From Escherichia coli (GTDB lineage: Bacteria; Pseudomonadota; Gammaproteobacteria; Enterobacterales; Enterobacteriaceae), in the NCBI RefSeq assembly GCF_003018255.1, contig NZ_CP027440.1: DNA of 64,000 bases; one strand, 5' to 3'. Below are positions 57,375 to 61,811 of the stretch, one piece after another. How positions within the stretch are numbered: position 1 is the stretch's first letter; each line of letters starts with the position of its first letter. The position numbers were made by a program, and so were the translations under genes. The notes under the pieces were generated by a model. The model was not told the origin of the DNA. It made no database searches and saw only the letters and a program-made list of their open reading frames with translations.

Positions 57375-57899
57375 GAAACCTCGTGCGGTGATTGTTTTTT
57401 TGATCTACGCAGTGATGCGTGTGTAAGTTTGCAATTCCGTTTGTTGTATTGATTTCTTTACGTTTCATGTAACTGAATTATGATAATGCTACTTTTAACT
57501 ATCACAAGATAATGGTATGTGCCCGGGAATGCACCTGCTTTATGTAGATGCGTTGATTTTTTGGATAAAAAAAAAGCAATTGTAAGTTTTTCATCACATT
57601 TAATAGATACTTTAAGTCTGATAACATACTGTTTTAACTAGCTATATGCCGGATTTGTCTGCCTGCTGAAAACTATGCCTTAGCCACCAGCACAATAATC
57701 TTACAAAAGGTCATATAAGAATAAATAGATGTTAATAATACAATGGGTTTGTAACGCGAGTATTTAAATATAATATTGCGAGCTAAGTGAAAACGTTAAG
57801 TAATTGAAATAATCTTTCATTAAAAGCGTTTCTTATTGATCGAGAATTAAGTTTTCTATTTAATGCAAATAAGTTAAGGATAAACTGGAATGAAATAAA

Positions 57900-59681
57900 G
57901 TGAGCGATATTGTTTACCTGAGAATAATCGGTGAGAAGCAGGGCTATATTTCTTCAGGCTGTGGGACGTATGCGTCGGTTGGTAATTGCTGGCAGGTTGG
58001 CCATGAAGATGAAATTTTTGCCTTTGCACTCACCAACGCCATTACCAGTACTGGTAAAGGCGTTAATCTACAGGGGCTACAATTTTGCAAACTCATTGAT
58101 AAAAGCTCACCGCTACTGTCTAATGCCATCAATCAGAATGAGCGGTTATTTATTGAAATCGATTTGTATCGTATAAATAAAAGCGGGCGCTGGGAACGGT
58201 ATTATTATATTCAGCTAAGAAATGCTTCATTAACTGCTATTCATGTAAACATTTCTGACAATAATCTTCCTACCGAATGTATAACTGTCGATTATGACTA
58301 CATATTATGTAAACATCTAATAGTCAATACGGAATTTGACTGGTTGGCCTTTCCTGCTGGCTATAATAGCTTATTTATTCCGCCTAAAAGCCCACCTGCC
58401 AGTAATCTTAAGCCTGAACCTCTACCAGTTGTTAACCTTCCACTCTCTTCACCAGCGGTTAACCCGGTCTATGCAAAATCCTGTCTGAAGGAGAAGGGAT
58501 GTACAGATGCTGGAACGGCAGAAGAACCCGCTGAAAACTTCGGTCAAGTAGCGATTTTTGCTCAGCCAGTGGTTGATGACTGCTGTGGATACCACCATCC
58601 CGAGGCTAACGATGTCGGGCAACCCGCAGAAGCTCAAACCATGCTACTGTTTCCGGGTAGTGTGTTGGCGGCTCAAATATGGGGAAAATGGTCGCTCAGT
58701 GGCATACTCAGTGCAACCCGCGGCTCTTACATCGGTGCGTTGGCATCTGCTTTGTATATTCCCTCTGCGGGCGAGGGCAGTGCTCGCGTGCCCGGACGTG
58801 ATGAGTTCTGGTATGAGGAAGAACTGCGGCAGAAAGCACTAGCAGGCAGTACCGCCACCACCCGGGTACGTTTTTTCTGGGGAACTGACATTCACGGCAA
58901 GCCTCAGGTGTATGGTGTTCATACGGGTGAAGGTACGCCGTATGAAAACGTCCGCGTGGCGAACATGCAGTGGAACGAGCAGACGCAGCGTTATGAATTT
59001 ACCCCCGCTCACGATGTCGATGGCCCCCTGATTACCTGGACGCCGGAAAATCCGGAACATGGGAATGTTCCGGGCCATACCGGTAACGACAGGCCGCCGC
59101 TGGATCAGCCCACCATTCTGGTGACGCCGATTCCGGACGGCACCGATACCTATACCACGCCGCCATTCCCGGTTCCTGATCCGAAAGAATTCAACGATTA
59201 TATTCTGGTTTTTCCGGCGGGATCCGGTATTAAGCCCATCTATGTTTACCTGAAGGAGGATCTGCGAAAGCTGCCTGGTGTTGTAACAGGGCGCGGCGTC
59301 CCGCTTTCACCAGGAACTCGCTGGCTGGATATGTCGGTATCCAATAACGGCAACGGCGCACCAATCCCGGCGCATATTGCTGATAAATTGCGCGGACGGG
59401 AGTTTAAAACCTTTGATGAGTTTCGCGAGGCGCTGTGGCTGGAGGTGAGTAAAGACTCAGTGTTATTGGCGCAGTTTATAAAAAGTAATCAGAATAACGT
59501 TAGTCAAGGATATTCCCCCTATGTCCCTGAGGAGGGGTATTATTACGGACCAAATGAGATAGTTAAGAAATTCCAGATACATCATGTAGTTGCTATAGAA
59601 CATGGTGGTGGAGTGTATGATATTGATAATTTTAGGATTGTTACGCCCCGACTACATGATGAAATTCACTACAGGAGATAA
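57900..59681 (+). CDS. Hcp-family (T6SS tube) protein with C-terminal extension ending in a colicin E-type HNH DNase domain (Hcp-ET-like effector)
   Basis: GTG start with aagga SD. Residues 1-160 look Hcp-like (MSDIVYLRIIGEKQGYISSG...HEDEIFAFAL...LIDKSSPLL...RYYYIQLRNASLTAIH). Proline-rich linker at 161-190. The C-terminus aligns, from memory, with the colicin E9 DNase domain (GAPIPAHIADKLRGREFKTFDEFREALWLEVSKD ... KKFQIHHVVAIEHGGGVYDIDNFRIVTPRLHDEIHYRR carries the HNH motif). AT-rich island absent from the K-12 arrangement. Confidence 0.8.
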   Translation: MSDIVYLRIIGEKQGYISSGCGTYASVGNCWQVGHEDEIFAFALTNAITSTGKGVNLQGLQFCKLIDKSSPLLSNAINQNERLFIEIDLYRINKSGRWERYYYIQLRNASLTAIHVNISDNNLPTECITVDYDYILCKHLIVNTEFDWLAFPAGYNSLFIPPKSPPASNLKPEPLPVVNLPLSSPAVNPVYAKSCLKEKGCTDAGTAEEPAENFGQVAIFAQPVVDDCCGYHHPEANDVGQPAEAQTMLLFPGSVLAAQIWGKWSLSGILSATRGSYIGALASALYIPSAGEGSARVPGRDEFWYEEELRQKALAGSTATTRVRFFWGTDIHGKPQVYGVHTGEGTPYENVRVANMQWNEQTQRYEFTPAHDVDGPLITWTPENPEHGNVPGHTGNDRPPLDQPTILVTPIPDGTDTYTTPPFPVPDPKEFNDYILVFPAGSGIKPIYVYLKEDLRKLPGVVTGRGVPLSPGTRWLDMSVSNNGNGAPIPAHIADKLRGREFKTFDEFREALWLEVSKDSVLLAQFIKSNQNNVSQGYSPYVPEEGYYYGPNEIVKKFQIHHVVAIEHGGGVYDIDNFRIVTPRLHDEIHYRR

Positions 59682-59977
59682 TGTATATGCGTGATTTAAA
59701 AGATAAAATATATTTTTACACAGAAGGTGAATTTCTTGAAATGCTTGAGGAGATAGTAAATGCAACTAGCAAAGATAAATCCCTAAAAGGGAAAAAATTA
59801 GAAAAATATCTCGATACCTTAGTGGATCATTTCATTAAAATTACTGAACATCCTAAAAAGGGAGATCTCATTTTCTATCCTAATTCCCAAGAAGATGGTG
59901 AACCTGAAAACATCCTGAAAATCGTCAAAGAATGGCGGCGTTCACAGGGGCTACCCTTGTTTAAAGACTCTAAATAA
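59681..59977 (+). CDS. Colicin/pyocin DNase immunity protein (Im7/Im9 family), cognate to the upstream toxin
   Basis: ATG overlaps the toxin stop (taATG). 98 aa with YTEGEFLEMLEEI...VDHFIKITEHPKKGDLIFYPNSQEDGEPENILKIVKEWRRSQGLPLFK, resembling Im9 (YTEAEFLQLV...[20 protein letters not shown]...) as recalled. Confidence 0.85.
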   Translation: MYMRDLKDKIYFYTEGEFLEMLEEIVNATSKDKSLKGKKLEKYLDTLVDHFIKITEHPKKGDLIFYPNSQEDGEPENILKIVKEWRRSQGLPLFKDSK

Positions 59978-60135
59978 AGTAGATAATAAAACTATATATG
60001 AAACATCATCGCGTCTGGCTAATGCGATGATGTTAATAACATAAAATAATAATATGGTTGCTCTTAAAAAACAGGTAAAAAATACTGAAATCATTTTATC
60101 AATTTCTCGCGTTCACCGATACCCTTTGGCTGGAG
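59903..60135 (+). repeat. Direct repeat copy 1 of the module junction (conserved immunity 3' tail, intergenic spacer, DNase-tip 5' junction)
   Basis: Nearly identical to 60584-60825; includes hairpin catcatcgcgtctggctaatgcgatgatg (60004-60032) and junction ctttggctggaggtgagt. Confidence 0.8.
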
Positions 60136-60372
60136 GTGAGTCAGTATCCGGAGTTGATAGCGCAGTTTTCAAGTGGTAACCAAACACGTATAAAACAAGG
60201 ATTAACCGCAAAAGCACCTCTTGAAGGTTGGCGTTATGGCCCTAAAGAAATCGTTAAAAAATTCCAGATACATCATCGTGTTGCAATTGAATATGGCGGC
60301 AGCGTATACGATATTGATAATTTACGAATTGTTACCCCCAGACTACACGATGAGATTCACTACAGGAGATAA
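60136..60372 (+). CDS. Orphan C-terminal fragment of an HNH DNase toxin (78 codons from a GTG); expression uncertain
   Basis: Translates MSQYPELIAQFSSGNQTRIKQGLTAKAPLEGWRYGPKEIVKKFQIHHRVAIEYGGSVYDIDNLRIVTPRLHDEIHYRR. Homology to the full toxin begins at the LWLEVS junction. In-frame stop at 60076-60078 rules out a long upstream reading frame. Confidence 0.65.
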   Translation: MSQYPELIAQFSSGNQTRIKQGLTAKAPLEGWRYGPKEIVKKFQIHHRVAIEYGGSVYDIDNLRIVTPRLHDEIHYRR

Positions 60373-60374
60373 AT

Positions 60375-61065: not shown

Positions 61066-61356
61066 ATGTATAATTTTAAAGATAAAGTAGAAGATTACAC
61101 AGAGCGGGAATTCATTGAGTTGCTTGGCGAGTTTACAAATCCAACCGGGGATAACGCTCAATTAAAAGGGGAAGAGCTTGACAAATATTGGGATGATCTA
61201 GAAGAACATCTTACCAGAATTACACAACATCCGTTGATGAGCGATCTTATCTACTATCCTGCAAAGAAGGGAGATGATAAGCCTGAAAACATCCTGAAAA
61301 TCGTCAAAGAATGGCGGCGTTCGCAAGGATTGTCTTTGTTCAAAGATTCAGAATGA
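61066..61356 (+). CDS. Im7/Im9-family DNase immunity protein, paralog 3
   Basis: 96 aa with ...EEHLTRITQHPLMSDLIYYPAKKGDDKPENILKIVKEWRRSQGLSLFKDSE. Confidence 0.85.
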   Translation: MYNFKDKVEDYTEREFIELLGEFTNPTGDNAQLKGEELDKYWDDLEEHLTRITQHPLMSDLIYYPAKKGDDKPENILKIVKEWRRSQGLSLFKDSE

Positions 61357-61380
61357 ATTCTAAACAGAATCTGTCACCTG

Positions 61381-61415
61381 AAAATCATCACGTTCTGGTT
61401 AAGTGATGATTTTCG
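61381..61415 (+). terminator. Putative intrinsic terminator at the end of the toxin/immunity array
   Basis: Inverted repeat aaaatcatcac gttctggttaa gtgatgatttt followed by a T-rich tract, 25 nt after the last immunity gene. Confidence 0.55.
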
Positions 61416-61763
61416 CTACGAGAAGGTTACGGTGGCGATTGCAGTGATAATAAGCAATGTAAAAAGAAAACATAGGTAAATACTACCTTTCTCTCCTTCC
61501 CTGAACATTCATTTTACATATTAATTCACATAATTGAATTGTTATGCGTTTTGTTGCTTGGTGAATCGGTTCAGAGGACATATTTTTTCGTTTCAATTCT
61601 GTTAATCTCACCCCTTGATGGGTAAATTTAACATTTGTGCATAGTTACAACTTTGAAACGTTATATATGTCAAGTTGTTAAAATGTGCACAGTTTCATGA
61701 TTTCAATCAAAACCTGTATGGACATAAGGTGAATACTTTGTTACTTTAGCGTCACAGACATGA

Positions 61764-61780
61764 AATTGGTAAGACCAATT
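61764..61780 (+). promoter_or_regulatory. PdhR operator palindrome in the pdhR promoter
   Basis: aattggtaagaccaatt, a perfect ATTGGT-N3-ACCAAT inverted repeat about 30 nt upstream of the pdhR start. Confidence 0.75.
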
Positions 61781-61811
61781 GACTTCGGCAAGTGGCTTAA
61801 GACAGGAACTC

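Follow-up and report, generated by a model that had tools for sequence, protein, structure and literature searches.

The gap between aroP and pdhR in a stretch of 64,000 nucleotides from Escherichia coli (contig NZ_CP027440.1; this whole stretch is called the window in the following) holds extra DNA that represents PAIusp, a small E. coli island with immunity genes and the gene of the DNase toxin Usp, which is fused to an Hcp domain. We assign a probability of approximately 0.85 to the overall explanation, a joint figure that covers the identity of the element, the delivery of its toxin and its origin as a whole. The gap extends from 57375 to 61811, i.e. over 4,437 bp, according to the list of open reading frames (ORFs) and the RefSeq annotation of E. 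coli DETEC-S792, which is 100% identical to the window across the gap; the corresponding spacing in K-12 MG1655 amounts to 540 bp. A preceding reading of the bare letters (the sequence-only reading) had estimated that the start codons are about 4.4 kb apart, compared to roughly 0.5 kb in K-12, and had placed a toxin/immunity array into the additional DNA. The measured distances agree well with this estimate, and the array was found to comprise usp and three colicin-type immunity genes. The locus is already known, because the published PAIusp/Hcp-ET3-4 matches it; the toxin, the immunity genes, the promoter and the location have all been published, in descriptions that date from 2000 onward.

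PAIusp has been characterized as an island of approximately 4 kb that encodes usp (uropathogenic-specific protein) and imu1-3, that resides in the aroP-pdhR intergenic region of all usp-positive E. coli, and that has neither a tRNA nor an integrase and a G+C content below that of its flanks (Rihtar et al. 2020; PMC7142922). Its description has been traced to Nakano 2001, as cited in PMC3685522. The window corresponds to this island in its location between aroP and pdhR, in its size of approximately 4 kb, in the same gene for a protein of 593 amino acids (aa) with Hcp, S-type pyocin and HNH colicin nuclease parts, in the three immunity genes (imu1-3, equal to orfU1-3), and in the low G+C content as well as the lack of tRNA and integrase. 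PAIusp is described with two or three such small genes behind usp. Over its conserved part, usp shares 97-98% identity with the uropathogenic references. Nothing essential differs; the immunity genes, which fall into three types named A, B and C here, follow the order A-B-C in the window and B-C-A(-C) in UTI89 and ST131. Kurazono 2000 is reportedly a further source on PAIusp. The island is routinely used as a marker to type uropathogenic E. coli.

The extent of the island can be narrowed down from both sides. In a BLAST comparison, the K-12 region matches the window with 97.2% identity up to 57461 and with 99.1% from 61622 onward, and only one weak patch of 41 bp was obtained in between; the pdhR promoter region from 61622 is E. 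coli-typical with 98-100% identity. When the unoccupied K-12, Salmonella and Klebsiella sites are aligned with the window, the strict insert is placed at approximately 57587-61480 (3.9 kb), close to the boundaries of roughly 57.6 and 61.45 kb proposed beforehand. Furthermore, K-12, A20, Salmonella enterica and Klebsiella have aroP-pdhR spacers that are free of the island and colinear with each other; therefore the empty state is the older one, and the DNA was rightly called inserted relative to K-12. The G+C content is 40.3% for the whole gap compared to 52.1% for the whole window, but it is unevenly distributed, with 28.1% at 57540-57899, 36.2% in the immunity array and 54.3% in the middle of usp (58351-59400). 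Hence, the statement of the sequence-only reading that the island is AT-rich holds for both ends, including the very AT-rich non-coding flank at 57540-57900, but not for the centre of usp. The reading had also seen no mobility functions, with which all our searches agree: no tRNA was detected in a scan of 50000-64000, no integrase or transposase was found among the ORFs or in the RefSeq annotation, and no insertion sequence (IS) element lies at the island. The adjacent tRNA and integrase that characterize a classical genomic island are absent. A search against Rfam gave zero matches.

The toxin gene is supported by several matches. Pfam assigns residues 28-139 of Usp to T6SS_HCP (E 5e-13), residues 309-450 to Pyocin_S (E 3e-40) and residues 460-591 to Col-Pyo_DNase (E 6e-43). 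Among the structures in PDB, Hcp proteins match residues ~2-144 (6a2v, E 3e-14), the structural-genomics protein 3MFB matches the Pyocin_S region (E 1e-17), and klebicin G (residues 372-591, E 6e-42) and the colicin E9 DNase (E 3e-33) were obtained as further matches. The HNH residues read from the sequence are intact (...QIHH...DIDN...HDEIH). It has been reported that Usp is an HNH nuclease, which is toxic unless OrfU proteins are co-expressed, and that OrfU1 binds and neutralises Usp (Zaw et al. 2013; PMC3685522). The domain PF06958 was described as an inner-membrane translocation (IMT) domain common to nuclease bacteriocins and T6SS effectors (T6SS, type VI secretion system), a role established in pyocin G, and Usp was listed among the T6SS effectors in the same study (Atanaskovic et al. 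2022; PMC9040868). A review includes the protein as Hcp-ET3-4 (UTI89_C0121), a T6SS effector with three immunity duplicates for which antibacterial activity was reported (PMC6730261). Compared to Hcp-ET3-4 (Ma et al. 2017 through PMC6730261), the window has the same fusion of Hcp, Pyocin_S and colicin DNase, repeated immunity genes and the same locus, whereas the first immunity gene is of type A here and of type B there and the DNase tip is 70% identical in the last 82 aa. What was named the 'Pyocin S3 toxin' of Hcp-ET3-4 is now understood as a translocation domain (PMC9040868). In the same C-terminal 82 aa, the Usp of the window is 100% identical to that of Z1323, 89% to that of C. freundii and 68-70% to the tips of UTI89 (70%), EC958, SMS-3-5 and ECO20.

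Regarding expression, the divergent P3 promoter of aroP was reported to drive usp, with TyrR as activator and TGGTAT as -10 hexamer, and H-NS to repress the leader region of usp (PMC7142922). By sequence match, this hexamer is found at 57513-57518, inside the left proximal flank of the island; the published P3 is a weak-consensus site. Scans of the gap for sigma-70 promoters and terminators returned no more sites than shuffled sequence did. The usp leader aligns along its length with the Superficieibacter leader, and the leader of Superficieibacter 1612_C1 (522 bp) in turn aligns over its whole length with the leader of E. coli.

The immunity genes encode proteins of 96-97 aa each, homologues of which carry the Pfam domain Colicin_Pyocin, and the protein identity amounts to 94-100% within and 56-67% between the types. 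Type A, the only immunity gene searched against PDB, matches ImAP41 (1e-20), Im7 (1e-19) and Im9 (7e-15); it is 95-98% identical to the third immunity gene of UTI89/EC958 and 92% identical to the sole immunity gene of C. freundii. Type B is 96-99% identical to the first gene of UTI89/EC958, but only 65-66% to types A and C. The immunity genes belong to a module of 690 bp, of which a repeat search found three copies over 59402-61459, and the module homology starts at CTGTGGCTGGAGGTGAGT, which encodes LWLEVS. The type B and type C genes are each preceded by an orphan fragment of about 78 aa, which is homologous to the final ~80 residues of the DNase; the first fragment is intact in this part. 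The orphan tip of type B aligns closely with the functional usp tip of the UTI89 type, with a homology that starts upstream at the LWLEVS junction; judged from this alignment, it looks like a displaced former tip. The resident tip (89%) and the type A immunity protein (92%) both resemble the single pair of C. freundii, which argues for a genuine cognate pair conserved across genera. In the proposed scheme, the type A immunity protein would neutralise the resident DNase tip, while types B and C probably protect against sister strains equipped with those tips and retain material for cassette exchange. However, it must be mentioned that Imu3 was reported not to bind Usp tightly and may mask DNA instead (PMC3917654), i.e. 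the simple picture of cognate immunity may be incomplete. The positions of all features are compiled in Table 1.

Table 1. Features of the aroP-pdhR region, with positions in the window.
Feature	Position	Strand	Remarks
aroP	56001..57374	-	Left flanking core gene, outside the island; ORF list, RefSeq annotation of the identical genome, 97.2% identical to K-12 aroP
Left proximal flank	57448..57586		Homologous to empty sites, highly diverged; contains P3
DR-L, probable left target copy of ~37 bp	57549..57586		Ends with TTGTAAG; decayed; aligns with GTGATGACGAGTTGCGTAAAAAGAAAGCACTTGTAAA of the Salmonella empty site
usp leader	57587..57899	+	Island-specific, AT-rich (~28% G+C); lacking at the unoccupied K-12, Salmonella and Klebsiella sites
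usp (annotated tssD; equals Hcp-ET3-4)	57900..59681	+	593 aa, GTG start as in RefSeq; Pfam, PDB, DNA identity
Polymorphic usp tip, type A	59437..59681	+	From LWLEVS to the end; immunity-binding region of colicin DNases and HNH motif
Immunity gene, type A	59687..59977	+	Putative cognate of the resident tip; PDB matches
Inter-module hairpin AACATCATCGC-N11-GCGATGATGTT	60002..60034		11-bp stem; repeat search and sequence read; second copy at 60684-60716
Orphan DNase tip, type B	60136..60372	+	78 aa; HNH end intact; lacks the N-terminal ~515 residues of usp
Immunity gene, type B	60375..60668	+	Equals the first immunity gene in UTI89, ST131 and SMS-3-5
Degenerate orphan DNase tip	60826..61065	+	One catalytic His replaced; frameshift after DIDNLR (tip alignment)
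Immunity gene, type C	61066..61356	+	95-96% identical to the second immunity gene of UTI89/EC958
Hairpin GAAAATCATCAC-N11-GTGATGATTTTC after the last module	61381-61415		Related to the inter-module hairpin; stems of 11-12 bp
DR-R, probable right target copy GTGATAATAAGCAATGTAAAAAGAAAACATAGGTAAA	61444..61480		Aligned to the Salmonella left-of-junction target GTGATGACGAGTTGCGTAAAAAGAAAGCACTTGTAAA
Right proximal flank	61481..61621		Homologous to empty sites; appears to travel with the island
pdhR	61812..62576	+	Right flanking core gene, outside the island; ATG at 61812; ORF list, RefSeq annotation

Concerning its function, Usp would be fired by the T6SS into neighbouring bacteria and degrade their DNA, as proposed in published work and transferred here to the strain of the window. 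The Pyocin_S domain would carry the toxin across the inner membrane as in nuclease bacteriocins, possibly by an FtsH-type import of the DNase. The arrangement agrees with that of Hcp effectors, i.e. an N-terminal Hcp part, a C-terminal toxin, immunity genes downstream and a T6SS apparatus in the matching genome, since DETEC-S792 harbours a full T6SS cluster at aspV (tssA-M, hcp, vgrG, rhs), outside the window. Several observations speak against this assumption. In DETEC-S792 (NZ_CP116067.1 4560585-4561995), the annotation marks a frameshift in the T6SS-cluster gene of a VasL-domain protein, and copies of ISEc1 disrupt the Rhs effector downstream of vgrG; the apparatus meant to fire Usp may be impaired in that strain. 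Moreover, the T6SS-dependent delivery of Usp relatives is known second-hand, via reviews (PMC6730261), and other groups ascribed to Usp a genotoxic action on mammalian cells (PMC7142922, PMC3917654).

The latter studies lead to a different view, in which Usp is mainly a released, bacteriocin-like genotoxin directed against mammalian host cells and the island is a virulence island. Usp was found to be active on mammalian cells and to be associated with pyelonephritis, prostatitis and bacteraemia (PMC7142922, PMC3917654), and many extraintestinal pathogenic strains (UTI89, 536, F11, ST131) are among the carriers. Nevertheless, we consider this view rather unlikely, although it is the least improbable of the alternatives. 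The N-terminus of Usp is an Hcp domain and not a receptor-binding or Tol/Ton translocation domain, no lysis gene was found among the ORFs or in the RefSeq annotation, and the combination of polymorphic tips with both matched and orphan immunity genes is the signature of conflict between bacteria. Antibacterial activity was reported (PMC6730261), and the commensal/probiotic strain Nissle 1917 as well as environmental isolates also carry the island. The genotoxic and the antibacterial role are not mutually exclusive.

The same distinction becomes evident when the locus is compared with nuclease bacteriocins. Usp shares the HNH DNase with colicins E2, E7 and E9, pyocins S2 and AP41 and klebicin G (E 1e-24 to 1e-33), its immunity proteins belong to the same four-helix family as the colicin and pyocin Im proteins (E 1e-13 to 1e-20), and a Pyocin_S/IMT domain directly precedes the nuclease in both groups. 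However, compared to the operons of the E-group colicins, which have an HNH DNase and an Im protein as well, the usp locus is chromosomal (1,058 of 1,058 copies) and not plasmid-borne, has neither receptor-binding nor Tol/Ton domain nor lysis gene, and starts with a T6SS tube protein.

With respect to its layout, the array resembles another group of toxins. Rhs and CdiA arrays consist of a full-length toxin followed by tip fragments, which start from a conserved junction and are each accompanied by an immunity gene. The same layout was found for usp, i.e. immunity-paired tip fragments from a conserved junction with a strain-variable order and number of cassettes, as in arrays of the Rhs or contact-dependent inhibition (CDI) type. 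Differences exist in that Hcp is the carrier, the junction LWLEVS lies inside the DNase domain, and two of the three usp tip remnants are degenerate or homogenised, which limits switching. At Rhs and CdiA loci, serial displacement of tip/immunity cassettes produces such orphan-array patterns, and the pattern of the usp cassettes would fit the same process. In detail, the order A-B-C is present in the window and Z1323, B-C-A in UTI89, SMS-3-5 and E7-1N7, B-C-A-C in ST131 EC958 and B-C in ECO20. The orders are cyclic among the strains, which represents a lead for specialists rather than a discovery. The junction between the A tip and its immunity gene was detected with at least 95% identity in 131 of the 1,058 carriers. 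Four usp subtypes (Ia and Ib, IIa and IIb), which are distinguished by the 3' type of usp and the order of the orfU genes, go back to Nakano 2001, as summarised in PMC3685522; the window would be subtype Ia, provided that the orfU numbering follows the prototype order and that ST131 is IIa (PMC8087846). In addition, the Usp tips (residues ~512-593) of the UTI89 and ST131 types are only 78% identical, compared to 97% for their first immunity proteins; either the two tips share a single immunity protein, or the specificity is retuned by three residue changes.

The conserved usp part (57900-59350) of the island was found in 1,058 of 5,426 complete E. coli genomes, as one copy each, always chromosomal and with 97-100% identity, and in 1,047 genomes, 80% or more of the entire gap lies together at a single location. 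The carriers include UTI89, 536, F11, NC101, Nissle 1917, ST131 strains and SMS-3-5, and the window is 97-98% identical in conserved usp to SMS-3-5, NC101, Nissle 1917, F11 and the ST131 strains. The island lies at the aroP-pdhR site in every carrier whose location was examined; in UTI89, for example, a tssD gene for 593 aa and three immunity genes are situated between aroP and pdhR. K-12, DH10B and O157:H7 have an empty site of 540 bp. The sequence-only reading would have been wrong if most E. coli genomes, K-12 included, carried the same genes at this position, which is clearly not the case. Among the contigs that encode an identical PdhR protein, two states were observed at the locus, empty or occupied by the usp island, and no other cargo. 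In a published set of isolates, the cluster was confined to phylogroups B2 and F (PMC12466380).

Beyond E. coli, the aroP-pdhR site is occupied in Salmonella bongori, in Citrobacter freundii, whose Usp has 77% protein identity and a single immunity gene (the protein is indexed in 196 data blocks), and in the metagenome-assembled enterobacterium UBA5654 (69% identity). Exact-word peptide patterns missed S. bongori and C. freundii, and both were recovered by protein search. In Superficieibacter sp. 1612_C1, the site is occupied by a remnant of usp (residues 1-406). Here, all immunity genes are gone owing to a deletion that also extends over approximately 100 bp of right-flank sequence with the GTGAATCGGTTCA block; this loss is imprecise, in contrast to the clean empty sites of other genomes. 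Usp-like cassettes of a more distant kind (64-83% identity) are located at unrelated loci, at the gene of a ProP-like transporter in Superficieibacter HKU1, at dadX in Kluyvera and at gltA in C. koseri. Neither an att-like motif nor flanking repeats were found around these three cassettes, which were examined without corresponding empty sites.

How an island free of mobility genes arrived at this place is the part of the analysis that may add, at a modest scale, to present knowledge. The sequence-only reading had identified no flanking direct repeats. Within the window this remains true, because the alignment of the left with the right junction reached a best score of only 10 (p~0.3-0.45), which is not significant, and a repeat deduced from the window junctions alone was dropped as evidence. 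It does not hold once empty sites are included, because the right end of the island (61444-61480) resembles the target to the left of the junction. DR-R and the Salmonella target share 26 matches (manual count) over 37 positions, with a local alignment score of 15 and a shuffle p~0.001, the comparison with the K-12 target gave p~0.008, and p~0.001-0.03 was obtained for the empty-site targets overall. For the left and right copies, the comparison gave p~0.002 in C. freundii and p~0.02-0.05 in S. bongori. We regard a target duplication of approximately 37 bp flanking the island as probable, not proven, and the decay of DR-L in the window explains why it had not been seen at first. Two further candidates were rejected: a 4-bp GTAA at both junctions, initially considered as target-site duplication, was absorbed into the longer repeat, and the best terminal inverted repeats, at 57472-57503 and 61057-61088, match by just 72%, which was judged as chance.

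The proximal flanks outside these copies are informative as well. The left flank is 60-61% identical to the empty alleles of K-12 and A20, 91% to UTI89 and 73-74% to Superficieibacter, to which it is closest apart from E. coli carriers; between S. bongori and S. enterica, it is 88% identical, i.e. native Salmonella sequence. The right flank is 53-56% identical to empty E. coli alleles (56% for K-12), compared to 77% for the occupied allele of C. freundii and 72% for that of S. bongori, and the occupied S. bongori and the empty S. enterica share only 62%. In this segment, occupied alleles group together across genera. Beyond both proximal flanks, the identity to empty E. coli alleles rises to 98-100%. 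Accordingly, occupied and empty flanks within E. coli diverge as much as E. coli does from Salmonella. The approximately 140 bp on each side with 53-61% identity to empty alleles suggest that the island came into E. coli when the spacer allele was replaced by homologous recombination.

Taken together, the following course of events can be proposed. One old insertion into the aroP-pdhR spacer would have duplicated the ~37-bp target. Subsequently, homologous recombination within the promoter regions of aroP and pdhR, which are conserved, would have spread the occupied allele between and within enterobacterial genera. In E. coli, approximately 4.17 kb (57448-61621) would have been replaced, with one crossover beside the TyrR box (~57448), the other inside the pdhR promoter (~61622), and without involvement of any mobility gene. 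The complete version, with a single ancient insertion, spread between Escherichia, Salmonella bongori and salamae, C. freundii and Superficieibacter only by allele replacement with ~140 bp of donor flank on each side, tips changed by cassette displacement, and an A-B-C array of the window derived from a B-C array that regained a C. freundii-like A cassette, is tentative, and we would give it somewhat less than even chances. Two points weigh against this origin by replacement in general. The evidence for homologous replacement comes from short (129-166 bp), fast-evolving non-coding segments and from a comparison of identities, not from a formal recombination test, and the 37-bp repeat is degenerate and A-rich, with three significant comparisons that are not phylogenetically independent. 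If confirmed, the proposal would answer the question of the PAIusp authors, one ancient acquisition or a specific integration site, and its modest value is to explain how ordinary homologous recombination can spread an island as a spacer allele. The target duplication in its decayed form, the flanks of donor type and the occupancy in C. freundii and Superficieibacter are leads for specialists, not a discovery.

The dedicated integration site, which was raised as an alternative in PMC7142922, would imply that the island entered each genus independently, with an integrase acting in trans and the ~37-bp repeats as attL/attR. The flanking repeat of the target sequence and the junction shared by several genera are in line with such a site. 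We nevertheless regard it as improbable, since there is no integrase, tRNA or excision gene at the island, and neither a flanking repeat nor a common motif was found for the Usp-like cassettes at other loci in Superficieibacter HKU1, Kluyvera and C. koseri. Moreover, across genera, the right 140-165 bp outside the repeat vary together with the island, an indication of one insertion with subsequent homologous transfer. That the island is ancestral at the locus and was deleted from K-12 and most other E. coli is very improbable. In favour of such a loss, at least five enterobacterial lineages are occupied at this site, and the copy in Superficieibacter 1612_C1 is still decaying by deletion. On the other hand, K-12, A20, S. 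enterica and Klebsiella have colinear empty sites with the same junction, in which neither a usp nor an imu remnant is present. Precise deletions would hardly have occurred repeatedly, the sole observed deletion is imprecise, and the occupied allele has the probable target duplication that is expected for an insertion.

Some minor observations concern the array and its surroundings. The hairpins at the module ends are all without a T-run, and S. bongori and C. freundii share the last one. A role in RNA stability or processing, or as recombination sites, is conceivable for these hairpins. A near-perfect palindrome of 30 bp (AACGCCATTACCAGT/ACTGGTAAAGGCGTT) is located at 58035-58064, within the part of usp that encodes the Hcp domain. 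A much longer array than that of PAIusp exists in Escherichia sp. E1V33, where at least five immunity-like genes or fragments stand behind a Usp-like gene of 47% identity; within the examined flanks of 7 kb, no AroP or PdhR match was found. Finally, genes for a GH43 glycosidase and a major facilitator superfamily (MFS) transporter lie between ampE and aroP in Salmonella, Klebsiella, S. bongori and C. freundii. The pair also occurs on one contig encoding the identical E. coli PdhR, is absent from the window and K-12, and constitutes a further presence/absence polymorphism at a distance of one gene from PAIusp.

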